The position numbers and the translations under genes were made by a program. A model generated the notes under the pieces. The model saw nothing but the letters and a program-made list of their open reading frames with translations. It did no database searches and was not told where the DNA came from. 64,000 nucleotides of DNA from Rhodothermales bacterium (GTDB lineage Bacteria > Bacteroidota > Rhodothermia > Rhodothermales > VXPQ01): the NCBI GenBank assembly GCA_965116435.1, contig OZ220686.1, positions 1,082,844 to 1,146,843 on the forward strand. The letters run 5' to 3'. This document shows positions 9,243 through 34,038 of this stretch, in pieces. Positions within the stretch are counted from its first letter, which is position 1, and each line of letters opens with the position of its first letter.

Positions 9243-9278
9243 GGAAGAAGGGCTGGATCGGATCGGCAGCAATTATAA

Positions 9279-11659: not shown

Positions 11660-11742
11660 TATAATCTTGTAGTATACTGCATTCGCCGTTATGCTGTTAC
11701 GGCGTATCCGTACTCCTTCGCGCAAATACGCTCTATTATATT

Positions 11743-14494: not shown

Positions 14495-14501
14495 GGACGC
14501 C

Positions 14502-14992: not shown

Positions 14993-15830
14993 TGCTCTCT
15001 GGGGATGCAGGTTTTGCGGACACGAGAAATTGCGGCACGGAAATACGATAGATTGGGTGGAACTTGCCGCAGTCGACAAGGGCCCGCGGACCGGAACCGA
15101 AGTCGATCCGAGCAGCGTCCAGATATTTTCTCCAACGGTGTTCGTGCCGGTCAGCAAAGACGAAGAACAGTCTGCGCACCTTCACGCTGCGACAAACGGT
15201 CAGCAGCTCCATGAGCAAATTTGGCCGTAACGAAACCAGCCCTTCGAATATACGGTCGATATGTTCAAAGCTGGCCTTGCCAGGTAGTTCGTTGAGCGCC
15301 TCAAGAATCGCGCGTTCTGGAGACGAGGCTCTGACGGGCCAGCGCCATACATCTACCGCCCACCCGTCCAAGTTGGCCTCGAAGTCGGTATCGACGACGC
15401 CGACCGGGTCGCCGCCGAACAGCATCTCCTGTCGAACCACGATCCGTTCCTGCGCAGGCAAACGCGCCAGCCAGGACGGCGTATCGCCGTAAAGATAGAC
15501 GCGCGAACTTTCCCCGAGGGGCAAATAATGAACATGACCCGCAAGATTGAGCGCACTCTCGCCGCCCAAATAGACATTGTACCCCATGAGGCGTTGCAAC
15601 GAGAGTAGAGCGACTTCCCAAGACTTCCCTGTCGCCTGGACGCTCTGTGGCAACGGACGCCGGTAGACTCCGCGAATCACCCGCTCAAGCCATCCGCGAG
15701 CAACGTAGTCGTGAATGGACTTGGGATCAATATCGCGCCCCCTGAGCCATCGCGCATCGACCATGAAGCCCGGCGGAACCGTGTCCAGGAGTGGTTTTAA
15801 TTTTGGTGTTTTTACATGGTTCATAACCAT
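14985..15830 (-). CDS. AbiEi-family type IV antitoxin / transcriptional regulator
   Basis: 281 aa. The N-terminal region ..FMVDARWLRGRDIDPKSIHDYVARGWLERVIRGVYR resembles the AbiEi N-terminal wHTH. GC is lower than in the flanks. Confidence 0.6.
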   Translation of the reverse strand: MVMNHVKTPKLKPLLDTVPPGFMVDARWLRGRDIDPKSIHDYVARGWLERVIRGVYRRPLPQSVQATGKSWEVALLSLQRLMGYNVYLGGESALNLAGHVHYLPLGESSRVYLYGDTPSWLARLPAQERIVVRQEMLFGGDPVGVVDTDFEANLDGWAVDVWRWPVRASSPERAILEALNELPGKASFEHIDRIFEGLVSLRPNLLMELLTVCRSVKVRRLFFVFADRHEHRWRKYLDAARIDFGSGPRALVDCGKFHPIYRISVPQFLVSAKPASPESNA

Positions 15831-17715: not shown

Positions 17716-17740
17716 AACGAATCTCAATGGAAACGGAAAC

Positions 17741-18871
17741 ATGACGTTCTGGCGCCATCGTACGCGGATACCCGCTCCCCTGTTCGCCGTCGCCGTATTT
17801 GCGGGCGCGGGATGGCTCTTTGCCGCCTGCGGTGCGAACAACGAACAACCCGCCGCCGGAGAAAACGGCGGGCAGCCCGCGCTCCGGGCAAGCGATCTCG
17901 CCCAACCCGGGGAAACGCGCCTGCGCAACCTCCGCCAATTGACGTTCGGCGGGGAGAATGCCGAAGCGTACTGGGCCTTCGACGGATCGGCGCTCATCTA
18001 CCAGGCTCGCAAGCCGGGCATGGAATGCGACCAGATTTATATCATGGACGATCTGGAAACGGCCGCGTCCCGCATGGTCAGCACGGGCGACGGGCGCACC
18101 ACCTGCTCCTATTTTTATCCGTCGGGAAACCGGATGCTCTATTCGTCCACGCATCTTGCCACCCAGGATTGCCCTCCGGCCCCGGACTTCTCCCAGGGCT
18201 ATGTCTGGCCCATCTACCCGAGCTACGACATCTTCGCCGCGGATGCGGACGGCGCCAACCTGCAACGGCTCACCGAAACCGACGGCTACGACGCGGAGGC
18301 CACTTTTTCGCCCGTCGGAGACCGGATCGTGTTCACGAGCATGCGCGACGGCGACCTGGAACTGTATTCGATGGCCCCGGACGGCTCCGACGTACGGCGA
18401 CTGACGAACCGCATCGGATACGACGGCGGCGCATTCTATTCCCCGGACGGCTCCCGAATCGTCTGGCGAGCGCATTACCCCGAGCCGGGGCCGGAACAGG
18501 ACGACTACCTCCGCCTCCTCGACCAGGGCCTCTTGCGTCCCGGCGATCTGGAGATTTACGTGATGGATGCGGACGGCTCGAACATGCGCCAGGTGACGCA
18601 CCTCGGCGGAGCCAACTTCGCCCCTTACTGGCATCCGGACGGAGAACGCATCCTGTTCAGTTCCAATCACGAGGACCCGAACGGACGGGAGTTCGAAATC
18701 TACATGATCGGCATAGACGGAACCGGCCTGACGCGCATCACGCACTCCGAAGCATTCGACGGATTTCCCGTATTCAGCCCGGACGGGCGCTACCTCGTGT
18801 TCGGATCGAACCGCAACAACGCGGGCACGAACGATACGAACCTCTTCCTGGCGGAATGGGTGGAGGAATGA
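17741..18871 (+). CDS. TolB-like PD40/WD40 beta-propeller lipoprotein
   Basis: Signal [20 protein letters not shown]40 repeats recur: [59 protein letters not shown]. Confidence 0.85.
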
Positions 18872-18951
18872 GTGTCGGGGGTTAGGGGGTGTGGCGTATG
18901 TGCGGTATCGCGGTGCGTGCTGCCACCTGCGTTACCGCCCGCCTTCTGCGG

Positions 18952-19035
18952 TGCCCAAGAGAGGACTCGAACCTCCACGCCCTAACGGGCACATGACCCT
19001 GAATCATGCGCGTCTACCAATTCCGCCACTTGGGC
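18952..19035 (-). tRNA. tRNA-Leu (anticodon CAG)
   Basis: The reverse complement GCCCAAGTGGCGGAATTGGTAGACGCGCATGATTCAGGGTCATGTGCCCGTTAGGGCGTGGAGGTTCGAGTCCTCTCTTGGGCA folds as a class II tRNA. It has a 7-bp acceptor stem, the anticodon loop TTCAGGG, a long variable arm and a GTTCGAGTC T-loop. Confidence 0.9.
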
Positions 19036-19295: not shown

Positions 19296-19370
19296 TCCTC
19301 GGTAGCTCAATGGTAGAGCATGCGGCTGTTAACCGCAGGGTTGTAGGTTCGAGTCCTACCCGGGGAGCCA
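19296..19370 (+). tRNA. tRNA-Asn (anticodon GTT), CCA encoded
   Basis: In TCCTCGGTAGCTCAATGGTAGAGCATGCGGCTGTTAACCGCAGGGTTGTAGGTTCGAGTCCTACCCGGGGAGCCA the acceptor TCCTCGG pairs with CCGGGGA. The anticodon loop is CTGTTAA and the T-loop is GGTTCGAGTCC. The island begins immediately 3' of it. Confidence 0.92.
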
Positions 19371-19396: not shown

Positions 19397-19867
19397 GTGG
19401 TGGCGGTACCACTTGCAGACCAGATCATACGGAAGGTCAAGCAAGCGGCTGAACTCTATCACCGGCTGCTTTTGGTCGTCGCGCCGGCGGGTGCGGGAAA
19501 GACGACTGCGCTTCATGATGTACAGGATCGCACCGGTGCGCCCCTCGTCAACGTCAACCTGGAGCTATCCCGCCTGATGCTGGAATTGACAGAGCGTCAA
19601 AGGGCGCTACAGTTGCCTCATCTTCTCAGGGCGATCGTCGGCAATGGGGGCGGAGAGATGATTCTGCTCGACAATATTGAAATCCTCTTCGATTCCAGTC
19701 TGAAGCAAGACCCGCTTCGGCTACTCCAGGGACTCTCCCGCAACAAAACCGTCGTGGCTGCATGGAACGGCGCCATCGTTGAAGATTCTTTGACCTATGC
19801 CGCTCCAGGTCACCCGGAATACAAGCGCTATCCGATGCGCGATTTTCTGGTGGCAAGCCCGGAGTGA
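19397..19867 (+). CDS. brxF: Small P-loop ATPase, BrxF-like (BREX type 3 marker)
   Basis: The listed ORF 19277-19867 starts inside the tRNA, so GTG at 19397 (or 19400) is the likely start. Walker A is LLLVVAPAGAGKTT. A Walker B-like motif is EMILLDNIEILF. The tail reads PLRLLQGLSRNKTVVAAWNG..LTYAAPGHPEY. Size (~156 aa) and position directly upstream of brxC fit BrxF. Confidence 0.65.
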   Translation: MVAVPLADQIIRKVKQAAELYHRLLLVVAPAGAGKTTALHDVQDRTGAPLVNVNLELSRLMLELTERQRALQLPHLLRAIVGNGGGEMILLDNIEILFDSSLKQDPLRLLQGLSRNKTVVAAWNGAIVEDSLTYAAPGHPEYKRYPMRDFLVASPE

Positions 19868-19909: not shown

Positions 19910-22900
19910 ATGAAATACGGTGACCTGATCCAGTTTGAACCCATTGAGTCCGTGGTCCAGCTGCGGAACGCCGACGAAGCGACTGCGGCACGGCAACTTG
20001 TCGAGACCTACGTTATTTCAGAGGAGATGGCGGAAACGCTGGTGGGCCTTGTCATTCCCCAGCTGCAGTTCGAGCACCCCACCGACAACAAAGGCCTTCT
20101 GGTGGTCGGTAACTACGGCACCGGTAAGTCCCACCTGATGTCGGTGATCTCCGCACTTGCGGAAAACGCCGACCTCGCCCCCTTCTTGAACAATTCAGAC
20201 GTGGCGGATGCCGCCGGAAAGATCGGCGGACGATTCAAGGTGGTTCGCACCGAAATCGGGGCCACCACCATGTCACTTCGGGACATCCTCGTGGCCGAGT
20301 TGGAAGAGCACCTTGAGGACATGGGCGTGAGTTACAGCTTCCCCTCTGCGGATCAGGTATCCAACAACAAGCGGTCCTTTGAAGAGATGATGACCGCGTT
20401 TCATCAGGAGTTTCCAGACCACGGACTGCTCCTCGTCGTGGACGAACTGCTTGATTATCTGCGCACGCGCAGGGACCAGAAACTCATCCTGGATCTGAAT
20501 TTTCTCCGTGAAATCGGCGAGGTCTGCAAGGACCTGCGCTTCCGCTTCATGGCCGGCGTTCAGGAAGCGATCTTCGACAGCCTACGCTTTTCCTTTGTGG
20601 CGGACAGCATCCGCCGGGTACGGGATCGCTTCGAGCAGGTCCTGATCGCCCGCAAAGACGTCAAGTTCGTAGTGGCCGAGCGACTGCTCAAAAAGACCGG
20701 CGAACAGCAGGCCAGGATACGCGAGTACCTGACGCCCTTCGGCATGTTCTACGGCCACATGAACGAGCGCATGGACGAGTTCGTCCGCCTCTTTCCGGTA
20801 CATCCCGACTATATCGACACCTTCGAGCGGGTGACCGTCGTGGAGAAGCGCGAGGTATTGAAGACCCTCTCGCTGGCCATGAAGAAGATACTCGACCAAG
20901 ACATACCGGACGACCGGCCCGGGCTCATTGCCTATGATACCTACTGGACCAATCTTCGGGAGAACCCCTCGTTTCGTGCCGTACCGGATATCAAGGAAGT
21001 GATCGACTGCAGTCAGGTACTGGAGTCCCGTATCCAGCAGGCCTTTACGCGCCCGACTTACAAGCCCATGGCATTGCGGCTCATTCACGCCCTGTCGGTT
21101 CATCGGCTCACCACGAACGACATTTACACCACCCTGGGTGCAACAGCCGGGGAACTGCGGGACGGGCTCTGCCTCTATCAACCAGGCATTGAGGATCTGG
21201 GCGGTGATCCGGCCGACGACCTGCTCTCCCAGGTGGAGACAGTGCTGCGGGAAATCCACAAGACGGTCAGCGGGCAGTTCATTTCATCGAACCCGGACAA
21301 CCGCCAGTTCTATCTGGACCTGAAGAAGACCGACGACTTCGACGCGCTGATCGAAAAGCGGACAGAGAGCATCGACTCCTCAACACTGGACCGTTATTAC
21401 TACAAAGCCCTGAAACGGGTCATGGAGTGCACGGACCAAACCTATGTGCGCGGCTACAAGATCTGGCAGCACGAACTGGAATGGCTGGAGCGCAAGGCCG
21501 CGCGTCAGGGGTATCTGTTTTTCGGTGCGCCCAACGAACGGTCCACCGCTGTGCCGCCGCGGGATTTCTACCTCTACTTCATCCAGCCCTTCGATCCACC
21601 GCCCTTCAAGGATGAAAAGAACGCCGACGAGTTGTTCCTGCGACTCACGAACCCGGACGACGAATTTCGCACCTCGCTCATGAGTTACGCGGCAGCCCTG
21701 GACCTGGCCTCCACCTCGTCAGGGCACGCCAAGTCCACTTACGAGTCCAAGTCATCCCATTTTCTGCGGGATATTGTGCAATGGCTACAAAAGCACATGA
21801 GTGACGCCTTCGAGGTCACCTATCAAGGCCGCGCCAAGTCGCTCACTGAATGGGCCAAGGGCAAATCGATCCGGGAGCTATCCGGCATCGGCTCCCATGA
21901 GCGCATCAACTTCCGCGACCTTGTGAACACGATCTCCGGCATCTGCCTGGGAGCCCATTTCCAGGATCAGGCGCCTGAATATCCCTTCTTCTCGGTGCTC
22001 ATCACCGGGACCAACCGGGACCAGGCCGCGCAGCATGTCTTGCGCGCCATCGCCAGCCAGAATCGAACCAGGCAGGCTACGGCGGTGCTCGACGCCTTGG
22101 AACTGCTCGACGGCGAACGACTCGACCCCTACAAATCGAAATACGCCAAACACATCCTTGGACTACTCAATAAGAAAGGCCACGGTCAGGTGGTCAACCG
22201 CTCCGAGCTGATCCAGGATGACAAGGACGTGGAATACATGGACAAGGACCGGCAGCGGCTGGAACCTGAATGGGTTGCGGTCGTGCTGGCCGCCCTGGTC
22301 TACGCCGGTGATCTGGTCCTCGCCATTCCGGGCAAGAAATTCGACGCTACCGGTCTGTCGCAGCTGGCAGGAACCGGCATCGACGAACTCACGCAGTTCA
22401 AGCATATCGAACAGCCCAAGGACTGGAACCTTCCGGCGCTCAAGGCCTTGTTCGAACTGCTCGGTCTCACTCCCGGCATGGCCCAGCTTGTCACTCAGGG
22501 CAAGGAAGAGCCTGTCCAGCAGCTCCAGAAAGCTATCTCCCAGATGGTGGATAAACTGGTGCTTTCGCGGCAGAGCCTGGAAAGCGGTCTACTTTTCTGG
22601 GGCCGAAATCTCCTGGCCGAGAAAGAGGCGCAAAAACTTCGCATCCGGCTTGATAAGACCAAGATCTTCCTGGAATCGCTCCAGGCGTACAGCTCGCCCG
22701 GAAAGCTCAAGAACTTCCGCTATGACGCGCAGGAGGTAACCGCCCATCGGAACGAGCTCAATTCCCTGGCTGAAATCGAATCCCTCCAAGAACTGGTCGC
22801 TGATCTCGGTTCCACCGCCTCCTTCCTCTCCACCGCCGAAGCGGTTCTGTCCGCCGAACACGAGTGGGTAGGCAAGATGCACGAGGCACGGGACGAAGTG

Positions 22901-23638
22901 CTCGCCCAGCTTCGTGACCCGGACAAGCGCGAGACCGCCACCTTCCGTCAGCAAACCCAGCGCAAACTGATCGACCTCAAAAAGGCCTATGTGCAGACCT
23001 ATCTGGGAATGCACACCAGGGCACGGTTGGGCGTGAACGAGGACAGGCGCAAGAACGGCCTCATGGGAGATGAACGGCTCAAAGTGCTGCAGAAGCTCTC
23101 CACCATCGAGTTGATGCCCCTCCAGCACCTGATTGACTTTCAAAATCGTTTGGCCGGATTGAAAGGCTGCTTTGCCCTCACCGGGCAAGAGATGGACGCT
23201 TTACCGGTATGCCCGCACTGCAGCTATAAACCAGAGGCGGAGCCGCCTGCCGCACCTGCCGGAACGGTGCTGGACGGCTTGGACGACGAACTGGACAATC
23301 TGGTGGCCAACTGGACCCAGACGCTGCTCGCCAACCTGGAAGATCCGACCACCAAGGGCAACCTGGACCTGCTCAGGCCCGAACCCAAAATTCTGGCAAA
23401 CGACTTTATCAAGAAGCGGGAGCTACCCAACAATCTCGGCCAGGATTTCATCCATGCACTGAGCGAGGCGCTTTCCGGCCTTCAAAAGGTTCCCGTCAAG
23501 ACCGAGGACCTGCGAGCGGCGCTGCTCTCCGGCGGTTCACCGGCAACACCGGTTGAGATGAAGAAACGATTCGAGGAATATCTGGACGAACTTACCAAGG
23601 GCAAGGAACCCGGCAAGGTGCGCATCGTGCTGGAGTGA
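19910..23638 (+). CDS. brxC: Large BREX ATPase, BrxC/PglY family
   Basis: 1242 aa. The N-terminus is [34 protein letters not shown]. Walker A is [11 protein letters not shown] and Walker B is [13 protein letters not shown] long helical C-terminal half contains a CPHC element. Confidence 0.8.
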
Positions 23639-23642: not shown

Positions 23643-25499
23643 ATGACTCAAAATGAACTGGCCAATCTGCTCAACGCTCATGAATGGCGAGATGTTGAGT
23701 TCAAGGAGGCGCAACGGAACGTGCCGCGAAACGCCTATGAAACGGTTTCCGCTTTTGCGAATACCGAAGGCGGTCATCTCGTGTTCGGCGTTCGGAAAAG
23801 TGGACAAGATTTCGAATTTGTCGGCGTTCTTGATATCGACAAGGTTCAGAACGATTTCCTGACAGCACTGCGACAACGCGACAAGCTGAGCATCATTGTG
23901 AATGTTCGTGAAGAACTGCACAAATACGGCGAATCAGACTTGCTCATTTTCTACGTGCCGGAAGCCCATCGCTCGGAAAAACCGGTTTTCCTGAATGGCG
24001 ACATTCGTCGATCATATGTGCGCAGTGGCGGCTGCGATGTGCGCTGCTCGGACAATGAGCGGAGCCGATTCCTTGTGGATGCTGCTGCCGAACGATATGA
24101 CGGCCAGCCTGTTGACCTGAACCCAAGTACGGCGTTCGACAGGGAAAGCATCAAATGGTATCGGGCCTTTTATGAAATAAGGCCGGGAAACCGATCTCAC
24201 GCAACGCTATCCGACACAGATTTCCTAAAGGAACTGGGGTTGCTGGTTGAAGAGCACGGCGAAGTGTCTCCGTCGCGCGCTGCGATTTTTCTGTTTGGGA
24301 CCAATGCGACTTTCCGGCAACTCCTTCCACGGCCGGTAGTGGACTGCCAGAGGTTCTCGCTGCCTCGTGACAGGGCTGATGTCGGTGAGCGATGGATTGA
24401 CCGTCTCGTTCTCGACGAAAACCTCATTCGGTCCTGGCAATCCCTTATCGATTGGTACCAAAGATTCGCGGAGCGGCCATTCAGAATTGACCCAATAACC
24501 TTGCAGCGAGATGACGCACCGCCGGACTACCGCGCCTTTCGTGAATCCATGGTCAACCTGATCATCCATCAGGATTATTCCGATCATTCCAGGAATCCGG
24601 AAATACGTCACTATACCGACCGGACCGTCTTTTGGAATCCTGGCGATGCCTTCGCTGCTGATACAGACCTGCTTGAACCCGGTGAAAAAGAGGTCCGAAA
24701 TCCCAGGATCGTGACCGCTTTCCGGCGCATAGGGCTGAGCGAGAACGCTGGCTGGGGTCTGCGAGATGTCTTCCGCAATTGGCAGCAGTTGGGCCATGTT
24801 CCGCCGACGATTGCTAACAACAAGGGGCGCAAGTGTTTTGAGCTCATTCTCAAAAAAGAAGAACTCATGTCGGAACAGCAGATTCTTTTCCAGGCAAGCC
24901 TCGGTGTGCAGCTCAGCAACGAACAAGCCAGGGTGCTTGCTTTTGCCTGCCGCGAAAGTATAATCTCACTTCCGCAAGTCAAGGCCGTAACGGGTCTTGC
25001 CGGACCGGATGCCGCGGAGCTTGCCAATGCCCTGGTTACAAAATCTCTCCTCAGGACCCTTGAGGACAGTAGAAAATACGCCTTGGCAGAGCACTTGAAG
25101 AAAATGTTCCACCAAACCGACCAAGCCACTGACCAACCTGATGTACGGGCCGAAAACTTGTCCACTGCACAAGTCGAAGGCCAAGAGGAAGACTTGTCCA
25201 CTGGACAAGTTCCTGTCCTTGCAGAACTTTCCGAAACTCATTGGAAAATCATAGCGTTATGCGATGTACCCCGCCGCTTGGCCGAGATTCTGGAAGCCCT
25301 TGGCGTAACCAACAGGGGTTATTTCAAGGAACACCACCTTGACCCACTGATTCAGTCCAAGATTGTGGCGATGACCAACCCGGAGAACCCCCGGGCATCA
25401 AACCAGAGATACGTAATCACCGAAGCGGGCGCTTTGTTGAAAGCACGCCGCATGTCTGACGACACCGACCGAAGCGAGGATCAGAATGGCAATGTTTAG
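23643..25499 (+). CDS. AlbA_2 (Schlafen-like) + HATPase_c_4 + winged-helix protein (RecG-like putative DNA-binding regulator)
   Basis: The N-terminus EWRDVEFKEAQRNVPRNAYETVSAFANTEGGHLVFGV is the AlbA_2 signature. The middle ..YRAFRESMVNLIIHQDYSDHSRNPEIRHYTDRTVFWNPG is HATPase_c_4-like. The C-terminal wHTH-like segments end ..HHLDPLIQSKIVAMTNPENPRASNQRYVITEAG. It starts 5 bp after the brxC stop and overlaps the next gene by 14 bp. Confidence 0.75.
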   Translation: MTQNELANLLNAHEWRDVEFKEAQRNVPRNAYETVSAFANTEGGHLVFGVRKSGQDFEFVGVLDIDKVQNDFLTALRQRDKLSIIVNVREELHKYGESDLLIFYVPEAHRSEKPVFLNGDIRRSYVRSGGCDVRCSDNERSRFLVDAAAERYDGQPVDLNPSTAFDRESIKWYRAFYEIRPGNRSHATLSDTDFLKELGLLVEEHGEVSPSRAAIFLFGTNATFRQLLPRPVVDCQRFSLPRDRADVGERWIDRLVLDENLIRSWQSLIDWYQRFAERPFRIDPITLQRDDAPPDYRAFRESMVNLIIHQDYSDHSRNPEIRHYTDRTVFWNPGDAFAADTDLLEPGEKEVRNPRIVTAFRRIGLSENAGWGLRDVFRNWQQLGHVPPTIANNKGRKCFELILKKEELMSEQQILFQASLGVQLSNEQARVLAFACRESIISLPQVKAVTGLAGPDAAELANALVTKSLLRTLEDSRKYALAEHLKKMFHQTDQATDQPDVRAENLSTAQVEGQEEDLSTGQVPVLAELSETHWKIIALCDVPRRLAEILEALGVTNRGYFKEHHLDPLIQSKIVAMTNPENPRASNQRYVITEAGALLKARRMSDDTDRSEDQNGNV

Positions 25500-28353
25500 G
25501 CATGATGCTGGACAGCGGCAGTTGTTCAAAACCAAGCTGGTCCCGGGCAATGCGGAATCGGGCAATCTCTTTAAAGAGGAGGTGGTCACGGACGATGATC
25601 CGGTGGAATGCCTCGGCATAATCTTCGAAAGCAATGAGAAACGCCGCGAGTATTTCCTGGAGAAGTTGCGCGAAAAACTCGAGGATCCTGAGTTCCGCAA
25701 GATCGAAGGGTTCCCCATTGGTGAGGACGAGGACATCCTGGCCTTGTCCGACCCGCCGTACTACACGGCTTGCCCCAATCCATTCATCGAAGACTTTATC
25801 AAGCACCACGGGAAGCCGTATGATCCAGCTACTGATGATTATCGAAGAGAGCCCTTTGCGGCTGATGTGAGCGAAGGGAAGACCGACCCAATGTATAATG
25901 CTCACGCTTACCACACAAAAGTCCCTTATAAGGCAATCATGCATTACATCCTGCACTATACAGAACCAAATGACCTTGTTTTCGATGGTTTCTGCGGCAC
26001 AGGCATGACTGGCGTAGCGGCTCAAATGTGCGGTGATACCGAGATCGTAAAAGAGCTTGGTTACTCGATTAGTGAAGATGGCTCATTGACATCGAAACGC
26101 CACGTACATGATATTCAGCAGCAGATTCAAATAGGGACGCGAAATGCCCTAATAAGTGACCTCTCACCCATTGCTGCTTTCATTTCTGCTAACTACTGCT
26201 TGCCATTCGATGTTGACGCGTTTCAAAGAGCAGGGACACGCCTGCTTGAGGACGTCGAACGTGATGTGGGGTGGATGTATGAGACTGCTCATTCAGATGG
26301 TCGTCGTGCAGGAAAGATCAACTTCACAGTATGGAGTGATATCTATGCATGCCCTGAATGCGCCGAAGAGATTGTTTTTGTGGAGCAAGCATTCGATCCT
26401 GATGAAAAGCGAATAAGGGACAACTTCGCTTGCCCAGGCTGCAGTGCGTCGCTTACCAAGAATGATTTAGAGCTGTTGTACAGTTCATACATCGACGCAG
26501 CAACTAACGAAACTGTTCGTCATCCCAAGCGCAAACCTGTCTTCATCAATTACTCCATCGGAAAGTCCAGATTTACCAAGAGAGTGGATGTCGATGATTT
26601 GGAGAAACTGAAAAAAATCGGCCAGCTACCTCTTCCTCCAGAAATTCCAACTCTCGAACTTCCTGATTCACAAATGCGGCGTGTTGGCCGAATGAAATCA
26701 GCAGCCGTCACGCATATTCATCATTTTTTCCTTCCTCGACCTGCTCAAGCGCTTGCATCTTTATGGCGGAGTGCTTTGGCGATTGAGGAACGACGCCTTC
26801 GGAATATGGCAGTATTCTTTGTTGAGCAGGCGATCTGGGGACTTTCGATTTTGAATCGCTTCAGCCCATCCCATTTCTCTCAAGTTAATCGTGCACTATC
26901 AGGAGTGTTTTACGTACCCTCACAGATCTCGGAAGTCAGCCCTAATTATGTGCTATCTGGAAAACTGAACCGCTTGGTCTCAGCGTTTTCAGGGCAACAT
27001 ATTCGGGATTCCAAGGTGATGATCTCAGTCGCCGATTGCGCTCAAACTCGAATCTCAGACAACTCGATTGACTATGTTTTCACTGATCCTCCGTTTGGTG
27101 AGAATATTTACTACGCAGATCTAAATTTATTGCTTGAATCATGGCATGGTTTATTAACTGCACCCGCACGGGAAGCGATAATTGATCGTGCACGCGGAAA
27201 AGCACTCAATGATTATCAAGCACTAATGGAGGAATGCTTTAGTGAGTACCATCGTGTATTGAAACCTGGGAGATGGATAACGATTGAATTTCACAATTCG
27301 AAAAATAGTGTGTGGAACTCAATTCAAGAGGCTCTTCAGAAATCAGGATTCGTAATAGCTGATGTTCGGATGCTCGATAAAAAACAGTGTTCATTTCAAC
27401 AAGTAACCAGTCGAGGCGCCGTCAAGCAAGACCTCGCGATTTCAGCTTACAAGCCAAATGGTGGAATCGAGGATCGCTTTAAATTGACCGCCAGCACAGA
27501 GGATGGTGTTTGGGATTTCGTTCGGACGCATCTGAAGCAGCTCCCAGTATTTGTTTCAAAAGATGGCCAAGCTGAAGTTGTCGCTGAACGTCAGCACTAC
27601 TTGCTTTTCGATCGAATGGTGGCCTTCCATGTCCAGCGCGGTGTGACGGTTCCCATGTCCGCTGCAGAGTTCTACGCCGGCCTCGAACAACGTTTTCCCC
27701 CACGTGACGGTATGTATTTTCTGCCGGACCAAGCAGCCGAGTACGATAAGAAACGGATGACGGTCAAGGAAGTGCTCCAGCTTCAGATCTTCGTCTCCGA
27801 CGAGGCGTCTGCTATTCAGTGGCTCAAGCAGCTGCTCACCAAGAAGCCACAGACCTTCCAGGATGTCCACCCGCAATTCCTAAGGGAAATCGGCGGTTGG
27901 CAAAAACATGAAAAGGTGTTGGAGCTTTCCGAACTGCTGGAACAAAACTTCCTCCGTTACGACGGCAAAGGCGATGTGCCCAGCCAAATTCACAGCCACC
28001 TGTCCTCAAACTACAAGGAACTGCGCAATCTGGCAAAGGACGATCCAGCGCTCAATGCCAAAGCCAAGAACCGCTGGTACGTGCCCGACCCGAACAAGGC
28101 TGGCGACTTGGAGAAGCTACGCGAGCGGGCCCTGATGCGGGAGTTCGAGGAATACCGTGAATCGAAACAGAAACGCCTGAAGATATTCCGCCTGGAGGCT
28201 GTCCGGGCCGGATTCAAGAAGGCATGGCAGGAGCGCGATTACGCCACGATCATCGCCGTGGCCCGCAAGATACCCGAAAAAATTCTCCAGGAGGACCCCA
28301 AACTCCTCATGTGGTACGACCAAGCACACACCCGTTCAGAAGAGGGGACATGA
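25486..28353 (+). CDS. pglXI: DNA methyltransferase (N6-adenine/N4-cytosine type), PglXI-like
   Basis: 955 aa. The SAM-binding motif is VFDGFCGTGMTGVAAQ and the catalytic motif is YVFTDPPFGENIYY. An extra N-terminal LSDPPYYTACPNPF is present. A zinc ribbon CPECAEE..(20)..CPGC lies between the motifs. Confidence 0.8.
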   Translation: MAMFRHDAGQRQLFKTKLVPGNAESGNLFKEEVVTDDDPVECLGIIFESNEKRREYFLEKLREKLEDPEFRKIEGFPIGEDEDILALSDPPYYTACPNPFIEDFIKHHGKPYDPATDDYRREPFAADVSEGKTDPMYNAHAYHTKVPYKAIMHYILHYTEPNDLVFDGFCGTGMTGVAAQMCGDTEIVKELGYSISEDGSLTSKRHVHDIQQQIQIGTRNALISDLSPIAAFISANYCLPFDVDAFQRAGTRLLEDVERDVGWMYETAHSDGRRAGKINFTVWSDIYACPECAEEIVFVEQAFDPDEKRIRDNFACPGCSASLTKNDLELLYSSYIDAATNETVRHPKRKPVFINYSIGKSRFTKRVDVDDLEKLKKIGQLPLPPEIPTLELPDSQMRRVGRMKSAAVTHIHHFFLPRPAQALASLWRSALAIEERRLRNMAVFFVEQAIWGLSILNRFSPSHFSQVNRALSGVFYVPSQISEVSPNYVLSGKLNRLVSAFSGQHIRDSKVMISVADCAQTRISDNSIDYVFTDPPFGENIYYADLNLLLESWHGLLTAPAREAIIDRARGKALNDYQALMEECFSEYHRVLKPGRWITIEFHNSKNSVWNSIQEALQKSGFVIADVRMLDKKQCSFQQVTSRGAVKQDLAISAYKPNGGIEDRFKLTASTEDGVWDFVRTHLKQLPVFVSKDGQAEVVAERQHYLLFDRMVAFHVQRGVTVPMSAAEFYAGLEQRFPPRDGMYFLPDQAAEYDKKRMTVKEVLQLQIFVSDEASAIQWLKQLLTKKPQTFQDVHPQFLREIGGWQKHEKVLELSELLEQNFLRYDGKGDVPSQIHSHLSSNYKELRNLAKDDPALNAKAKNRWYVPDPNKAGDLEKLRERALMREFEEYRESKQKRLKIFRLEAVRAGFKKAWQERDYATIIAVARKIPEKILQEDPKLLMWYDQAHTRSEEGT

Positions 28354-30986
28354 TGGCTAAGAAACAAATTTTTAAAACCGACTTCACCCGGACTACCGGA
28401 CCTACTGATCCGGAAGCACTTTTCCACAATTTACGGGGAAGGGCTCCAGACATTAAGCACCTTTGGTCGCACCAAGCCGATCTTCTTCGAGACTATCACC
28501 AAAAGTGTCTTGAAGCAAGAGATGTGGCTATTGAGCTCCCTACGGGATCAGGAAAGACACTTGTAGGCTTGCTGATCGCAGAATGGCGACGGCAATCGTT
28601 TAATGAGCGTATCGCCTACCTATGCCCCACTCGTCAGCTTGCTTATCAAGTTGGATCGCAGGCTAATAACTATGGAATTAGAGCCCATGTGTTGGTTGGA
28701 CAGCAAAGCTACTATCCTCCTCAAGAATTCAGCGAATATCAATCAAGTCGTGCTATCGCGGTAACCACATATAGTGGGGTGTTCAATAGATATCCAAGAA
28801 TTGAAGATGCACAGACATTGATTCTGGACGATGCACATGCGGGTGAAAATTTCATGGTCAGCATGTGGTCCGTGGAAATATCTCGTTCATCCATTGATAA
28901 TACCTACTTTTCGATTGTTGAACTTTTGCAAAATGCGCTGAATTCAGGATTCTATTCAAACATTTCAGATCGCACTGATCGGGATTCGACGAAAGCTCGT
29001 ATGACAGAGGTAGAGCTAATCGCTGGAGCTTCAATCCGTAAACACGAGGATGCCATCAGAGACCTTCTTGACGAGAATCTTGAAAAAAAGACATCTCCAT
29101 GGTATGCGTGGAATAATGTTAGAGAAAATATCACCGCTTGTAATTTTTTTATTTCTTGGGATACAATTCTCATCCGGCCATTCATTCCACCAACTCAAAC
29201 CCACGCGCCATTCGAGCAGGCGATTCAAAGAGTTTATATGTCGGCAACATTAGGAGCTGGTGGAGAACTGGAACGTATTACCGGCATCAAGTCTATAAAG
29301 CGTTTGCCCCTTCCCCTAGGATGGGACAAACGAGGTAGCGGACGGAAGTTATTCCTTATTCCAGAACTATCAATGATCAACGAAAAAATGATTGAAGTTG
29401 TAAAAGATGCAGTGCAAAAATTCGACCGAAGTCTTATTCTTATTCCTAGTCGATATGACTCTGAAGGTGCTGATCTAATCAACGTTATTGATCGATTAAA
29501 TATGAAAACATTTCATGCTGCTGACATTAAGGACAGTCTCGACCCATTTCTGAGTAGCACTAACTCCGCCTTGATTCTTTCGCGTTACGACGGATTAGAT
29601 TTACCTGACGAAGCCTGTCGCCTGCTTATTTTTGGTGGACTACCCAGCGGGACCAATCTGCAAGAAAAGTTTCTGTGGTCCAAAATAGCAGCCTCTTCGC
29701 TATTTAGAGATCGCGTGATAACACGTTTTGCCCAAGGCGTTGGCAGGTGTACGCGATCTGATAATGACTATGCTGTTGTATTGATGATCGGCCGTCGGTT
29801 GATTGATTTTCTTTTGAAGAATGAAAATCGTCAAATTTTGAATCCAGAATTGCAGGCAGAGATTAAGTTCGGCATGGAGAATTCCAGAGACAAGTCTGTA
29901 GAAGATTTTCAGGAACTGCGGAGAGTGTTCTTGTCACAGGGCGATGATTGGAAAGACGCAGAATCTGCGATTCTCGCTCTGCGAGATAGCTGTTCTCGCC
30001 ATGATGATCCAATCTCAAGGAAGCTAAATTCTGTGGTTGCCGATGAGGTTTCCTATCTCTATGCAATGTGGAGCAACAATTTTGAAGATGCGCTTGAGCA
30101 CGCGCGAAAAGCCGCGGATGCGCTTGGTGGTGATGAGACAAAGGCATATCGAGCATGGTGGTATTACCTTTCTGCTGAAGCGGCGATGGTTCTTTATGAA
30201 ACCACTGGAAAGGAAGCCTATCAAGATACCGCCCGAAACTTCCTTAAACGTGCCACTCGATGTTGTACCGGTGTTAGTTGGTTTGCACGCTTGGGGCGAT
30301 CATTCAATACCGGTGGTGAGACTCTGGAAATCAATGAAAAAATTGCGATAGCCGTTGAGACAATCAGAGGGCATTTGGCTAATTGGGGTGCTGTGGGTCA
30401 ACTGTTTGAACAGCAACTCACTCAGGTCATGAATAACATCCAATCCATTGAACACAAGGCATTTCATCAAGGACTCAAGGGGCTAGGTGAGATGCTTGGT
30501 TTCTACTCAGAATTGCCAGAAGGGGACGCTGCGCCTGATTGCATTTGGTCCGTTGGAAATCTAATCTATGTAGTACATGAGGCCAAATCGGAACACACGC
30601 CAAAGGACCCTATCGGGGTCAACGATATCCGGCAGGCGCAAAGCCACGGTAACTGGGTCCGGGCCAATCGAACATGTGAAGATAATACCGAAATTATCTG
30701 TCTGATTGAGAGCCCACGTGTAGCAGTAGCTCCAGAAGCCATTGCTCATGCTGAGTCTCTTTACCATGTGACCCCTGCACAGCTGAAAGAATTGTTTGAC
30801 AAGACCGCTGGCATTCTCCGGCGAGTCAGATCGAAGTTGACCGATCTCAGTGATGAGAAAGTCCTTGAGGAGCTATCACGCGAACTCATAACGGGCAGCC
30901 TTACACCTATGCGATTGGTGGAAAGGTTTTCCCAAATGCCTGTTGCCAACATGGAAAGGCGTGGCGGTAGAGGAAACAGCAGTTGA
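28350..30986 (+). CDS. SF2 helicase (DinG/XPD-like C-terminal motifs) fused to a C-terminal PD-(D/E)xK nuclease-like module; occupies the BrxHII position
   Basis: The start ATGATG overlaps the methylase stop (ATGA). Motif I is ELPTGSGKTLVG, motif II is LILDDAH and motif III is MSATLG. Helicase_C_2-like blocks are LILSRYDGLDLPDEACRLLIFGGLP and FAQGVGRCTRSDNDYAVVLMIG. The C-terminal ..APDCIWSVGNLIYVVHEAKSEHT..IRQAQSH fits D...ExK...Q. Confidence 0.75.
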   Translation: MMAKKQIFKTDFTRTTGPTDPEALFHNLRGRAPDIKHLWSHQADLLRDYHQKCLEARDVAIELPTGSGKTLVGLLIAEWRRQSFNERIAYLCPTRQLAYQVGSQANNYGIRAHVLVGQQSYYPPQEFSEYQSSRAIAVTTYSGVFNRYPRIEDAQTLILDDAHAGENFMVSMWSVEISRSSIDNTYFSIVELLQNALNSGFYSNISDRTDRDSTKARMTEVELIAGASIRKHEDAIRDLLDENLEKKTSPWYAWNNVRENITACNFFISWDTILIRPFIPPTQTHAPFEQAIQRVYMSATLGAGGELERITGIKSIKRLPLPLGWDKRGSGRKLFLIPELSMINEKMIEVVKDAVQKFDRSLILIPSRYDSEGADLINVIDRLNMKTFHAADIKDSLDPFLSSTNSALILSRYDGLDLPDEACRLLIFGGLPSGTNLQEKFLWSKIAASSLFRDRVITRFAQGVGRCTRSDNDYAVVLMIGRRLIDFLLKNENRQILNPELQAEIKFGMENSRDKSVEDFQELRRVFLSQGDDWKDAESAILALRDSCSRHDDPISRKLNSVVADEVSYLYAMWSNNFEDALEHARKAADALGGDETKAYRAWWYYLSAEAAMVLYETTGKEAYQDTARNFLKRATRCCTGVSWFARLGRSFNTGGETLEINEKIAIAVETIRGHLANWGAVGQLFEQQLTQVMNNIQSIEHKAFHQGLKGLGEMLGFYSELPEGDAAPDCIWSVGNLIYVVHEAKSEHTPKDPIGVNDIRQAQSHGNWVRANRTCEDNTEIICLIESPRVAVAPEAIAHAESLYHVTPAQLKELFDKTAGILRRVRSKLTDLSDEKVLEELSRELITGSLTPMRLVERFSQMPVANMERRGGRGNSS

Positions 30987-31013
30987 GAACTGAAGAAAAA
31001 ACCCTGGAACTGA

Positions 31014-31262
31014 GTGAACTGCTTCATAATTAAGATTGATGCAAAAAACCGATATTTTAGTCCGGACCATGGACAAATCTGCCAGACCATCAAGACCCAG
31101 ATGCTCTGGGGCGAGACGACCTGTCGGGTATGGCTATCCAACCGCGATTCGATGGTCCGCGTCCCTGCATCCAGGCTGCCCCCCCTGAAGGATTCAAGAA
31201 CAAGAACCGCTACCGGAAATGACGCCTCTCCTTATCTTACGGGTTACAGGAGGTACCCATGA
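31014..31262 (+). CDS. Doubtful 82-codon ORF in the helicase-pglZ spacer; its stop overlaps the pglZ ATG
   Basis: ORF-track entry. It ends ..YRRYP* with TGA overlapping the ATG of pglZ (ATGA). The segment GQICQTIKTQMLWGETTCRVWLSNRDSMVRVPASRLPPL could be a small beta-rich domain or a gene remnant. There is no independent support. Confidence 0.2.
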   Translation: MNCFIIKIDAKNRYFSPDHGQICQTIKTQMLWGETTCRVWLSNRDSMVRVPASRLPPLKDSRTRTATGNDASPYLTGYRRYP

Positions 31263-33265
31263 GTAACTGGCGCGACCAGATTCTCAGGGAGTTCACTCCC
31301 CATGTCGCCCGGCTGACCCTGGTTGCCGATCCAGACGGGCTGCTCCTGGAAGAAGGGGTTATTGGGAGCATACGCGAGCGTGGTTTTGAATTGATTCCGT
31401 TCGAGGATCATGTCGCCTTTCGCTACGCCTACGAATCCAGATTTCGCTCCCGCTGGGATCAGGGTGAGCAGACGGATTTGGTAGTCGTGCTGCGCTCTGC
31501 GGAGAGCGACCTCGGCTATCTGCCATACGATCTGCTCCAGGCAGGTCGCAAATTTTCATTCAACCTCGGGGATATCTTCCCCAGCCTGAGCTATCCAATC
31601 GTGACCGCCTTGGATCGGGGGGATCTGGATGCGCTCTACGAAGCCCAGAAGCAGCAGCACCCCGGAGTGCTGGGCGACAATGCTACAAAGGAATTCGTTC
31701 TGTGCCATGTCTTTGAGATCGATCCAGAACTCATCCGCAAGCCGTCCGATCTACTGCGGGTGCTGCTGCGCCGCCACTATCGGGAACAGCACATCCCCGC
31801 TTTGCTTGACGAGCGCTTTATTCAGATCCTGCGCCAACAGAGCGATTTTGAAGGGTGGCCCCTCGAAACGATTATCCCGGATCGAGAAGCCTTTTTCGCC
31901 TTTCTCCAGGAACGCTGGCCCATCTTCTTAAATCGGGCGGCAACCCAGGTTACCACCAGCACTCGCGAGGATGAGAAGCCCTGCGACCTTGAGTATCCCG
32001 GTCCTTCGAACTTGCCCTTCGACCATGACGACATCCGTGTCTATATCGACAACCTCTTTGTTGAAGGACTGCTTGAAGCGGTTGCCCATGATCAAGCCAA
32101 GTCGCTCTCCAGGACTTGGCTCGCCATAGGCATCCGAACGGACGAGCATGCGGACCGGGCGAGGCGCGTGGAGGGACTCCTCGATACCTTGGCGTCCGAT
32201 ATTCCGAATGAGGACACGCGGCACGAGGACTGGTTTCACTTTGCCAAAACCTGGGCGGAGCTTGTAGCGTTGGTGCTGGGTCCGAATGCGGTACTGCCGG
32301 AACCGGCGCGGCAGAAGATGGGAGCGCTTCAAGCTCAGATCGATGCCGCACTCGTGCCGTGGCTAACAAAACGCTACGCAGGATTGGTCAGCCTGCCTCC
32401 GGTTCCTCCGGTCATGCTCCATCATATTCCCCGTTTCCTCTCCCGCCATATTCACAATGGGAACCAACACAAGGTTGCGTTTATCCTGATGGACGGCCTT
32501 GGGCTGGATCAGTGGATCGTCATCCGAAAAGAAATCGCCAAACAGCGAGCCAATTACCGCTTTCGTGAGAACGCCGTGTTTGCCTGGATACCGACCATCA
32601 CGTCTGTTTCGCGCCAGGCTGCTTTTGCAGGAAAACCACCGATCTATTTCCCGAACAGCATCCATACCACCGACAAAGAACCGGCGTTGTGGACACAATT
32701 TTGGGCCGACCAAGGGCTTACACAGCAGGAAGTCGCATATGCCAAGGGACTGGGGAACGGCCCCCTGGAAAGTGTGGAGGAGATTGTTGCCCGGCCCAAG
32801 ACGCGGGTGGTCGGTCTGGTTGTCGACAAAGTGGACAAGATCATGCACGGCATGGAACTTGGCGCAAAGGGCATGCACAACCAGGTTCGCCAGTGGGCCG
32901 AGGGGCCATTCATGACGCAACTGTTTGACTTGCTTCTGGAAAACGGATTTCGTGTTTACCTGTCGTCGGATCACGGCAATATTGAAGCATCAGGTTGCGG
33001 CCGACCTGCAGAAGGAGCCGTGGCAAACCTGCGCGGAGAACGTGCTCGGATTTATTCCGATTCCTTGCTGCGAGGTCGGGTTAAGGAACGCTTCCCGGAC
33101 GCTTTGGAATGGCCTCCTATCGGGCTGCCGGAGGATTATTGGCCCCTGCTTGCTCCGCCTCGCGCCGCGTTTGTGCCCAAGACCAGAAACCTTGTCGGGC
33201 ATGGCGGCGTCGCTCTCGAAGAACTCATCGTCCCGCTTGTTCGGATTGAAAGAAGAGACACATGA
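31259..33265 (+). CDS. pglZ: PglZ alkaline-phosphatase-superfamily protein (BREX)
   Basis: 668 aa. The PglZ core reads VAFILMDGLGLDQW, FAWIPTITSVSRQAAFAG, VDKVDKIMHG and VYLSSDHGNIEA. Confidence 0.85.
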   Translation: MSNWRDQILREFTPHVARLTLVADPDGLLLEEGVIGSIRERGFELIPFEDHVAFRYAYESRFRSRWDQGEQTDLVVVLRSAESDLGYLPYDLLQAGRKFSFNLGDIFPSLSYPIVTALDRGDLDALYEAQKQQHPGVLGDNATKEFVLCHVFEIDPELIRKPSDLLRVLLRRHYREQHIPALLDERFIQILRQQSDFEGWPLETIIPDREAFFAFLQERWPIFLNRAATQVTTSTREDEKPCDLEYPGPSNLPFDHDDIRVYIDNLFVEGLLEAVAHDQAKSLSRTWLAIGIRTDEHADRARRVEGLLDTLASDIPNEDTRHEDWFHFAKTWAELVALVLGPNAVLPEPARQKMGALQAQIDAALVPWLTKRYAGLVSLPPVPPVMLHHIPRFLSRHIHNGNQHKVAFILMDGLGLDQWIVIRKEIAKQRANYRFRENAVFAWIPTITSVSRQAAFAGKPPIYFPNSIHTTDKEPALWTQFWADQGLTQQEVAYAKGLGNGPLESVEEIVARPKTRVVGLVVDKVDKIMHGMELGAKGMHNQVRQWAEGPFMTQLFDLLLENGFRVYLSSDHGNIEASGCGRPAEGAVANLRGERARIYSDSLLRGRVKERFPDALEWPPIGLPEDYWPLLAPPRAAFVPKTRNLVGHGGVALEELIVPLVRIERRDT

Positions 33266-34038
33266 GCACAGGGAGAGACCGACGGCACAGCCAGATTGGC
33301 CTGGATCGGCTTGTTCGGCTTGACTGGTTAGAGCAAACTGCCTATCTGGTCCTGGCCGGGAACGAAGCGCATAAAATGAAAACTATCCTGCAGGAGGAAC
33401 TTTCAGATGCGTTCCGCTCCAGCAACGCCGATGTGCGAGGTTCGCTCGACAAAACAATCACCATTTTGTTGAGGATTTGGGCGGGCGTTTCAGGCAATCT
33501 CCATCCACTTCGGGAAGATGGGCTCAATCTACTCTCAAGCCTGCCTCGGAAAGACCATATTGCAGTTCATTGGGGTATGACCATGGCGGTTTACCCTTTT
33601 TGGGGTTCGGTCGCCGCCCATACAGGACGGCTACTCAGGCTTCAAGGCACGGCGGCAAGCGATCAAATACAGCGCAGAGCGCGGGAGCAATACGGAGAGC
33701 GCGAAACGGTCTCTCGTCGAGTTCGCTATGTGCTGCGCAGCTTTATTGACTGGAACGTACTGGAAGAGACGCGAGTCAAGGGGACTTACAGCCAAGGAAA
33801 CCACTATCTGGTTGAAGAACCCAAGCTCATTGCCTGGATGATGGAAGCATCCCTCCACGCCCGGGTGAACGGGTCGGCCGCCATAAAAGACCTGCTCGAC
33901 AGCCCGAGCATCTTTCCCTTCCGATTAACCCATATCTCAGCCGAACATGTGGCGTCGCTCTCGCCTCGTCTGAATATCCTTCGGCACGGACTGGATGACA
34001 ACCTTGTGATGCTACATGAAAAAGGAAGGAGAACATGA
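33262..34038 (+). CDS. Uncharacterised 258-aa protein, translationally coupled to pglZ; candidate BrxA-like component
   Basis: ATGA overlap with the pglZ stop. It is helical-looking, with no TM segment or catalytic motif that I can see. The BrxA assignment rests on its position as last gene of a type-3-like operon and on size only. I cannot confirm sequence similarity from memory. Confidence 0.4.
   Translation: MSTGRDRRHSQIGLDRLVRLDWLEQTAYLVLAGNEAHKMKTILQEELSDAFRSSNADVRGSLDKTITILLRIWAGVSGNLHPLREDGLNLLSSLPRKDHIAVHWGMTMAVYPFWGSVAAHTGRLLRLQGTAASDQIQRRAREQYGERETVSRRVRYVLRSFIDWNVLEETRVKGTYSQGNHYLVEEPKLIAWMMEASLHARVNGSAAIKDLLDSPSIFPFRLTHISAEHVASLSPRLNILRHGLDDNLVMLHEKGRRT

Follow-up and report, generated by a model that had tools for sequence, protein, structure and literature searches.

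The DNA examined here is a 64,000-nt stretch of a Rhodothermales bacterium genome (assembly GCA_965116435.1, contig OZ220686.1, positions 1,082,844–1,146,843 of the forward strand), referred to below as the window. It holds an island of about 14.7 kb that adjoins a tRNA-Asn gene and encodes a type-3 BREX (bacteriophage exclusion) system. The BREX operon spans 19.3–34.0 kb on the + strand, right after the tRNA gene. According to Pfam and PADLOC, it encodes, in this order, BrxF, BrxC (DUF6079), a Schlafen/AlbA_2–HATPase_c_4 protein, the methylase PglXI (PF01555), a protein at first described as a helicase, PglZ and BrxA (Table 1). The central part of pglXI and the whole of the helicase gene are AT-rich, and this mosaic most probably reflects two unlinked processes: the reassortment of a specificity cassette within pglXI and the nesting of a gene of the Hna helicase–nuclease family in the BREX operon, with decay of brxHII. 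Related loci compared with the window are designated by L-numbers (L001, L003, L007 and so on).

Table 1. Features of the BREX island and its left flank (positions in the window; GC3, GC content at third codon positions; aa, amino acids; TRD, target recognition domain; SAM, S-adenosylmethionine; ORF, open reading frame).
Feature	Coordinates	Strand	Evidence and remarks
AbiEi_3-type antitoxin/regulator gene	14985..15830	-	separate GC dip
M28 peptidase–PDZ gene	15925..17997		between AbiEi_3-type gene and tRNA genes
tRNA-Leu	18950..19035	-	just upstream of tRNA-Asn
tRNA-Asn (GTT)	19296..19367	+	ARAGORN; Rfam tRNA 70.4 bits; marks left edge of island
brxF (BrxB-like component of type-3 BREX)	19397..19867	+	PADLOC BrxF E 5e-75, ORF aa 43-196; probable start
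brxC (DUF6079 ATPase)	19910..23638	+	Pfam DUF6079 1,895 bits; PADLOC BrxC 2,073 bits; GC3 0.75
Schlafen/AlbA_2 + HATPase_c_4 + Fic-like_C accessory gene, 618 aa	23643..25499	+	Pfam; GC3 0.57
pglXI 5' block	25486..25820	+	variable leader aa 1-50, conserved block aa 51-110; backbone-like, GC3 0.71
pglXI core, exchangeable cassette 'type A'	25821..27593	+	SAM motif, nested 4-Cys Zn-finger TRD, DPPF motif; GC3 0.34-0.48
pglXI 3' block	27594..28353	+	conserved C-terminal region; backbone-like, GC3 0.70; lies between AT-rich tracts
hna-like gene, 877 aa	28353..30986	+	superfamily 2 (SF2) DinG/XPD-like helicase + predicted C-terminal PD-(D/E)XK nuclease; GC3 0.41
brxHII pseudogene remnant, about 250 bp	31014..31262	+	tblastn; colinearity with L007
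pglZ	31259..33265	+	Pfam PglZ E 3e-26; PADLOC PglZ 1,027 bits; backbone composition, GC3 0.64
brxA (type-3)	33262..34038	+	PADLOC BrxA E 1e-100; GC3 0.58

Compositional mosaic of the operon

In 1-kb windows, GC content is 0.43–0.49 over 26–31 kb, compared with 0.55–0.59 in the rest of the operon and 0.62–0.66 in the chromosome, and a 300-nt profile repeats the same steps. The signal lies mainly at third codon positions. GC3 is 0.75 in BrxC, 0.62–0.70 in PglZ, 0.58 in BrxA and 0.36–0.48 in the helicase; within pglXI it is 0.70 in the first 100 codons, 0.34–0.48 over 25,786–27,585 and 0.68–0.76 in the last 250 codons. Likelihood change points, for each of which the observed value was reached by none of 300 permutations, place a GC3 drop from 0.71 to 0.44 at 25,821 (support 25,809–25,830) and a rise to 0.70 at 27,594 (support 27,582–27,624), both inside pglXI. 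A second drop falls exactly at the pglXI stop codon (28,353), raw GC recovers at 31,062 (support 31,040–31,158) and the right edge of the island is placed at 34,250. Two-proportion tests separate the core from the flanks of pglXI (GC3 0.427 versus 0.696, p = 8e-16) and the helicase from BrxC (0.414 versus 0.752, p = 9e-56); the PglXI C-terminus and BrxC do not differ significantly (p = 0.054). From counts in individual 60-nt lines, the first-pass annotation of this DNA had described a methylase with GC-richer ends and an AT-richer centre, a helicase gene AT-rich throughout, and breakpoints near 25.9, 27.5 and 31.0 kb. The sliding-window and GC3 profiles agree with those counts and contain the expected step changes.

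The AT-rich patches are therefore real, as is the interruption between them: about 760 nt of backbone-like sequence (27,594–28,352) part the two AT-rich tracts, which consequently do not form one contiguous block. They are two unrelated pieces, a methylase core and an Hna-type gene.

The pglXI core as an exchangeable cassette

PglXI of the window (PADLOC PglXI, 1,446 bits) is a PF01555-type methylase with a nested TRD, a four-Cys zinc finger and a conserved C-terminal region. In this family the core is a Rossmann fold with a nested TRD of about 250 residues capped by the zinc finger, and the C-terminal 280–300 residues form three helix–turn–helix (HTH) domains (PMC12839542). All of the invariant residues are kept in the window protein, namely C289, C292, C316, C319, D534-P-P-F537 and D167-G-F-C-G171. 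The top 120 homologues are 60–88% identical to it, and conservation is uneven along the chain, averaging 81% identity over the last 285 aa and 57% over the core. Sliding identity against L007 and L010 delimits the variable block to aa ~176–585, or up to ~650.

The core does not follow the rest of the system. Locus L001 matches the window at 91% aa identity in BrxC, 85% in the core, 93% in the PglXI C-terminus and 87% in PglZ. In L007 the corresponding values are 92, 44–45, 88 and 87%. The loci recovered for L010 and L011, both without PglZ and Hna, have BrxC at 84 and 82%, cores at 51 and 58% and C-termini at 94 and 91%. Over 87 loci, identity to the window in BrxC correlates with that in PglZ (Spearman rho 0.94), the PglXI C-terminus (0.78) and the PglXI N-terminus (0.75), and shows no correlation with that in the PglXI core (-0.21). 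Sixteen loci whose BrxC proteins are 73–97% identical carry at least nine core types that are mutually just 39–59% identical. Type A comprises the window, L001, L003 and L006; type B comprises L007, L037, L041 and L090; type C comprises L052 and L068; a further six are singletons. L001 and L007 share 97% identity in BrxC and 94% in PglZ, with cores only 47% identical.

A site test on the window, L001 and L007 gave the same picture. L001 pairs with L007 in BrxC, PglZ, BrxA and the final 400 nt of pglXI, whereas over the tract 25,786–27,585 it pairs with the window (627/82/102 sites); the test for heterogeneity among segments gives chi2 = 739, p = 1.5e-150. Even between the window and L001, synonymous divergence (dS) along pglXI is a patchwork, with values of 0.31 (aa 126–350), 2.5 (aa 351–550) and 1.5 (aa 651–750), against 0.37–0.39 in BrxC and PglZ. 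The dS of the core relative to L007 is saturated.

Discrete, diverged alleles, conserved flanks and a descent decoupled from the rest of the system, the marks of a recombining cassette, are thus all found in these alignments. They support, at the level of the family, the reading of the low-GC pglXI core as an exchangeable specificity cassette of type-3 BREX methylases. Of the exchange of the methylase core that had been proposed for the window, the family-level cassette stands and coincides with the low-GC3 tract; the lower-GC donor does not, as none was identified.

AT-richness of the core in the family

The high–low–high GC3 profile of pglXI recurs in L001 (0.71 / 0.42–0.54 / 0.65–0.77), in L003 (0.49 / 0.27–0.42 / 0.56–0.73) and, more weakly, in L006. 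Core GC3 falls short of C-terminal GC3 in 78 of the 87 loci (mean difference -0.10, Wilcoxon p = 4.6e-14) and of BrxC GC3 in 56 of 64; the C-terminal block itself follows BrxC. Low-GC hosts show no such deficit (0.41 versus 0.42), and in GC-rich ones, nearly all of which have the AT-richer core, it amounts to -0.13 to -0.14. AT-richness of the pglXI core is a family-wide property, not the mark of a particular donor. Since the same mosaic occurs in relatives and throughout the family, the GC step in the window is no evidence of a recent import.

In 50 loci from GC-rich hosts, the GC3 trough lies at PglXI aa ~300–560. All BrxC bins of these loci are within ±0.05 except the first (-0.061), though some BrxC segments are equally variable. 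The correlation between GC3 deviation and residue conservation is r = 0.71 in PglXI and 0.26 in BrxC. The general rule that low conservation means low GC3 was rejected as a sufficient explanation, because BrxC lacks that pattern.

The AT bias may stem from cassettes circulating through lower-GC pools, or from AT-biased drift under diversifying selection. It is possible, if rather doubtful, that the AT-richness arises wholly in situ and owes nothing to donor composition. The core, and Hna as well, would then lie nearer to a universal AT-biased mutational equilibrium, with diversifying selection and frequent sweeps or recombination on defence-specificity sequence relaxing the weak selection, or the biased gene conversion, by which GC-rich hosts maintain a high GC3. 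Such an origin agrees with the one-sidedness of the deficit, the scaling of core GC3 with host GC3, the correlation with conservation along PglXI and the persistence of the mosaic over a dS of ~0.4 without amelioration. It agrees less well with BrxC, where segments of equal variability (conservation 0.50–0.62) have no GC3 deficit, and with Hna, which is under purifying selection (dN/dS, the ratio of non-synonymous to synonymous divergence, 0.20) and yet has the lowest GC3. Moreover, the low-GC3 tract of the window takes in the residue-conserved SAM-motif block (aa 110–175), for which the family average is positive, and a recombination tract fits this better. Being an account of how the composition arose, the in situ origin can hold alongside cassette exchange.

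A reversed mosaic occurs in a low-GC host, Acetomicrobium sp. UBA5826 (L076, pglXI at 10001–13033), with GC3 of 0.77 in the PglXI C-terminus, 0.56 in the core, 0.43 in BrxC and 0.33 in PglZ. This points to import from a GC-rich lineage, either of that whole pglXI or of its 3' portion.

The Hna-like helicase–nuclease gene

The second AT-rich tract is a single gene. Inspection of the start and ribosome-binding site places its start codon at the ATG at 28,353, which overlaps the pglXI TGA (ATGA) and is preceded by AAGAGGGG. A 920-aa ORF beginning at 28,224 was rejected because its first 43 codons are the pglXI 3' end read in another frame and also 'match' in loci that lack such a helicase. Pfam recognises DEAD/ResIII/Helicase_C_2 domains at aa 37–484 and finds no match in the C-terminal ~378–390 aa; the nuclease part was recognised through an invariant PD...EAK motif, a profile search of the Protein Data Bank (PDB) and a fold search. 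In an alignment of 29 homologues, the invariant residues include the Walker A positions G65 and G67-K68-T69, the box D159-D160-A-H162 and the PD-(D/E)XK nuclease signature P728-D729...E743-A-K745.

The AlphaFold (AF2) model of the protein has a pLDDT confidence score of 83.6. Its best Foldseek match in the PDB is the cryo-EM structure of Hna (9yhn), matched over the full length with E 4.7e-37 and TM scores of 0.63/0.67, whereas DinG, XPD and CasDinG match the helicase half only. In an hmmsearch of PDB sequences, the family profile hit Hna (10uj/9yhn/9ykj) with E 8.9e-61 across the helicase and nuclease regions, aligning to Hna residues 14–539 (helicase) and 667–834 (nuclease stretch, E 8.6e-07). 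By profile and model, the 'helicase' of the window is a member of the Hna family that joins an SF2 helicase to a predicted PD-(D/E)XK nuclease. The best PADLOC model is PDC-S28 (E 5e-118, aa 56–909 of the 920-aa ORF). An identification as BrxHII was considered and rejected: PADLOC gave no BrxHII match to the 877-aa protein, its Pfam domains differ from the SNF2-rel_dom and Helicase_C with N-terminal TUDOR of BrxHII, and tblastn with BrxHII of L001 and L006 matched nothing within it, only a stub downstream.

Homologues of at least 66% identity that could be placed all lie directly after pglXI (L007, L009, L031, L037, L092, L093 and L098). Those of 59% identity or less lie elsewhere, some beside SNF2 helicases and PglXI-like methylases and most of them alone, so that the more distant homologues are mostly outside BREX while the subclade of the window is coupled to pglXI in every placed locus. 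Judged by these alignments, the window Hna is part of a subclade whose place in type-3 BREX loci is the pglXI stop codon. In L094, L100, L104 and L119, Hna homologues (48–59%) stand beside SNF2 helicases that are 30–33% identical to BrxHII; L104 and L119 also have a PglXI-like methylase fragment (24–26%). These four Hna genes may lie inside 'BREX-related' systems centred on DUF499, of the kind set out in PMC12839542.

Low GC3 is a lasting property of the gene. It is 0.41–0.48 in eight BREX loci, with 0.65 in L093, while the backbone GC3 of the same loci is 0.56–0.83. The dS between the window and L007 is 0.399 for Hna and 0.414 for both BrxC and PglZ. As the Hna value equals that of the backbone, Hna was already present in the common ancestor of the window and L007, and has kept its AT-rich composition ever since. 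At least three core types are found among the Hna-bearing loci; L001 combines a core 85% identical to that of the window with no Hna, and L007 an Hna of 85% identity with its distant core. On these identities, the core and Hna are inherited independently.

The brxHII remnant and the loss of BrxHII

In related loci BrxHII is a Swi2/Snf2-type protein of 932–934 aa encoded between pglXI and pglZ. In tblastn searches with BrxHII of L001 and L006, codons from ~1 or ~11 to 63, in the TUDOR region, match 31,029/31,053–31,211 of the window, and the last 17 codons match 31,213–31,263, so that the junction lies at 31,212/31,213; the stop codon of the original frame is TAA 31,264–31,266. No further BrxHII-like sequence was found by tblastn in the 64-kb window. 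Positions 28,300–31,211 are colinear with L007 9,948–12,853 (86.6% over 2,913 nt), a stretch that comprises the pglXI 3' end, hna, the spacer and the brxHII 5' end, after which the alignment jumps to L007 15,416. Relative to L007, which retains pglXI–hna–brxHII–pglZ, the window gene has thus undergone a clean internal deletion of 2,562 nt. The brxHII start, ATGATG in L007, reads ATAATT in the window. An 82-codon ORF from GTG 31,014 stays open to 31,262 and overlaps pglZ through ATGA; the dN/dS of the stub is 0.42, compared with 0.10–0.20 for intact genes. With BrxHII reduced to a remnant, the window locus is a BrxHII-less type-3 variant.

The colinearity of hna with L007 and the brxHII remnant that follows it identify the GC steps at 28.35 and 31.05 kb as the two ends of an hna insertion, and the reading of the gene as a compositionally foreign insertion is supported. 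The earlier suggestion of a swapped BREX effector did not survive this comparison: the gene is not a BrxHII allele, but an Hna-family gene that was added upstream of a brxHII later destroyed.

BrxHII has been regarded as a core component, present in 77% of type-3 systems (PMC12839542). Among the complete loci compared here it is missing in 23 of 58, and seven loci have nothing between pglXI and pglZ. It is absent in three of eight Hna-bearing and 21 of 54 Hna-free complete loci; there is no enrichment, and loss of BrxHII is therefore not tied to Hna. Five Hna-bearing loci have intact BrxHII, and no brxHII remnants were found in L009 and L037.

Directly behind pglXI lies a hotspot for cargo genes. 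L001 has ORF261 and a 1,081-aa ResIII/DEAD protein there (8119–12146), L003 a DUF262/GmrSD-like gene with a DGQQR motif (12886–13755) and L011 an AAA protein with a Peptidase_S8 (10928–14516); in L009 a HEPN_AbiU2 gene follows Hna (13015–13443). In L015, L041, L073 and L090, four unrelated hosts, a two-gene cargo (~634–642 aa and ~353–373 aa; gap ~3.0–3.2 kb) replaces BrxHII in the slot between pglXI and pglZ.

Functional replacement, in which the Hna-like protein took over the role of BrxHII in a hybrid BREX–Hna system, would account for the BREX-specific subclade with its fixed position and ATGA overlap, and for the loss of brxHII by three routes: internal deletion in the window, full absence in L037 and substitution by a HEPN gene in L009. 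It is nevertheless unlikely, given the lack of enrichment just described, the five Hna-bearing loci with intact BrxHII, the seven loci with an empty slot, the many unrelated cargo genes found in the same place and the fact that Hna of Sinorhizobium meliloti works alone (PMC13381803). A more elaborate version seems less likely still. In it, the BREX-embedded Hna would have been domesticated as a PglXI-coupled effector that made BrxHII redundant, with BREX self/non-self discrimination directing or licensing the Hna exonuclease, and the AT-rich composition of Hna and the core would be functionally maintained, for example for regulation, rather than being a relic of transfer.

Other genes of the island and its flanks

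The tRNA-Asn gene, which has a 100% identical copy at the same position in L003, sits within the mechanically called 'brxF' ORF beginning at 19,277. Since brxF homologues are 158–159 aa long, the in-frame GTG at 19,397, after the tRNA gene, is the probable start of brxF. A search at the right edge of the island (~34.2 kb) for an att-type direct repeat matching the tRNA-Asn 3' end found none, only chance matches of up to 11 nt. Downstream of the operon lie ordinary chromosomal genes, encoding an MFS transporter, a LysR protein, a HAD protein and thiamine functions.

The Schlafen-type gene is an insertion that follows brxC and extends 14 nt past the start of pglXI. Among the relatives, L003 (87%), L037 (80%) and L009 (70%) have it, and L001, L006 and L007 lack it. 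Its class has been described as a BREX 'backup effector' (PMC12839542). With its GC3 of 0.57, it represents a third compositional layer of the operon.

At the other end, brxA is a divergent block relative to both L001 and L007 (site patterns 14/35/204). Between the window and L007 its dS reaches 1.06 where BrxC and PglZ have 0.41, and aa identity is just 64–67%. From ~33,059 onward, site patterns switch to L001 = L007 at 163 of 194 informative sites (33060–34038, brxA and the pglZ 3' end). This suggests a further candidate recombination breakpoint near the pglZ/brxA boundary.

On the left flank, the AbiEi_3-type gene occupies a separate GC dip (0.54–0.56) of a low-GC patch at 14–16 kb and has a homologue (76% nt) upstream of the BREX locus of L003. 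L003 is 82% identical to the window across the tRNA-Leu/tRNA-Asn region and lacks the M28 peptidase–PDZ gene.

Origin of the mosaic and its meaning

According to the two-process reading, deeply diverged core types are reassorted among closely related BREX backbones, the likely route being homologous recombination within the conserved sequence on either side, the N-terminal block and the C-terminal three-HTH block. The window carries type A, as do its closest relatives, and fresh sub-mosaics within type A involve the distal TRD region. Separately, Hna would have joined the pglXI stop codon, with an ATGA overlap and co-transcription, before the window and L007 lineages split. The window lineage then lost the Swi2/Snf2 gene brxHII through the 2,562-bp internal deletion and loss of the start codon. 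As regards function, PglXI would mark host DNA at a motif set by the cassette, while BrxF, BrxC, PglZ and BrxA would perform BREX exclusion without BrxHII, as presumably happens in ~40% of type-3 loci. Independent back-up layers would be provided by Hna and by the Schlafen-type gene in the operon. By analogy with the S. meliloti protein, Hna may be an ATP-autoinhibited 3'–5' exonuclease of single-stranded DNA (ssDNA) released by phage single-stranded DNA-binding protein (SSB). Neither the core exchange nor the Hna insertion is recent or specific to the window genome, because the mosaic is shared with L001, L003, L006 and the family, and because the dS of Hna (0.399) is close to the backbone value (0.414).

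Several points weigh against this reading. The evidence for recombination consists of identity matrices, site patterns and NG86 dS. The pattern in the window/L001/L007 triplet is explained, on these alignments, by one core replacement in the L007 lineage, so that no replacement in the window lineage is proven beyond the sub-mosaic relative to L001. Core GC3 follows host GC3 (0.42, 0.49, 0.64 and 0.75 across host classes) and does not exceed backbone GC3 in low-GC hosts, so that a simple 'mixing pool' of donors cannot be the whole explanation. The 82-codon brxHII stub may have a residual role in translational coupling with pglZ. Finally, the window protein is just ~20% identical to S. meliloti Hna.

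The first-pass annotation had explained both tracts by a single cassette from a lower-GC donor that replaced the specificity core of the methylase together with the helicase. The two tracts do have a similarly low GC3 (0.43 and 0.41) and lie near each other in the same operon, but such a joint replacement is highly improbable. The ~760-nt separator has a GC3 of 0.70 and is 86.6% identical to L001 at the nucleotide level; L001 has the same core without Hna and L007 the same Hna with a 45% core; at least three core types accompany Hna; Hna has a backbone-like dS where the core is saturated against L007; and the helicase, which is not a BrxHII homologue, was added beside BrxHII, not exchanged for it. 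The probability that the mosaic comes from mis-joined contigs is negligible, since the pglXI–hna ATGA, hna–brxHII spacer and brxHII–pglZ overlap junctions recur at 72–87% nt identity in independent assemblies (L007/L008, L009, L031, L037, L092 and L093) and reading frames are intact across each compositional step.

On the two-process reading, an intragenic GC step can exist without recent import, and the one in the window is a stable trait of the whole family. To our knowledge, no BREX type has been studied less than type 3, and we know of no specificity rules for PglXI. The mapped bounds of the cassette (conserved aa 51–175 and the C-terminal HTH block) offer a concrete design for specificity swaps of ~1.8 kb, and the cassette reading predicts different methylation motifs for sister loci such as L001 and L007. 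The pair pglXI–hna–brxHII and pglXI–hna–ΔbrxHII makes a natural comparison for the role of the BREX helicase. An Hna clade dedicated to one BREX slot, next to a dispensable, decaying BrxHII, adds to the picture of nested defence systems.

Comparison with known systems

TRD shuffling is well known in restriction–modification enzymes, including Type I HsdS and Type IIG/III Mod proteins, and the TRD sets the specificity of BREX PglX. The PglXI cores resemble these cases in that discrete, deeply diverged modules with conserved flanks reassort among near-identical backbones. They differ in that the exchanged tract, of ~1.8 kb, extends beyond the TRD to the catalytic motifs of a single-polypeptide PF01555 enzyme, and in their family-wide AT-rich signature; a change of core would presumably change specificity here too.

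Hna of S. meliloti is a single-protein abortive-infection system, a 3'–5' ssDNA exonuclease that forms an ATP-bound autoinhibited dimer and is released by phage SSB (PMC13381803). The window protein has the same two-module architecture, is matched to Hna over its full length by profile and fold, and shares with all of its aligned homologues the Walker A lysine, the DDAH box and the PD...EAK residues of the nuclease. In contrast to S. meliloti hna, the window gene does not stand alone: it has a predicted translational coupling to pglXI, and its subclade is confined to that BREX slot. PDC-S28, although the best PADLOC model, is an uncharacterised single-gene candidate for which a literature search found one incidental mention only, whereas structure and profile tie the window protein to Hna.

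Accessory effectors embedded in BREX loci have been catalogued, including BrxU/GmrSD, Schlafen, HEPN, OLD and others (PMC12839542). The slot after pglXI in the loci compared here likewise holds varied cargo (DUF262, ResIII helicase, AAA + S8 protease, HEPN_AbiU2 and Hna). An Hna-family gene in such a role does not figure in that survey, in which the terms Hna, DinG, Rad3 and XPD are each absent (PMC12839542).

The canonical type-3 operon is brxF–brxC–pglXI–brxHII–pglZ–brxA (Goldfarb et al. 2015, as summarised in PMC12839542). The window has BrxF, BrxC, PglXI, PglZ and BrxA in the canonical order with strong hidden Markov model (HMM) scores. It differs from the canonical operon in that brxHII is a pseudogene remnant and in two embedded accessory genes, one of Schlafen type after brxC and Hna after pglXI, just ahead of the brxHII stub. 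Overall, the island is a variant architecture of known systems.

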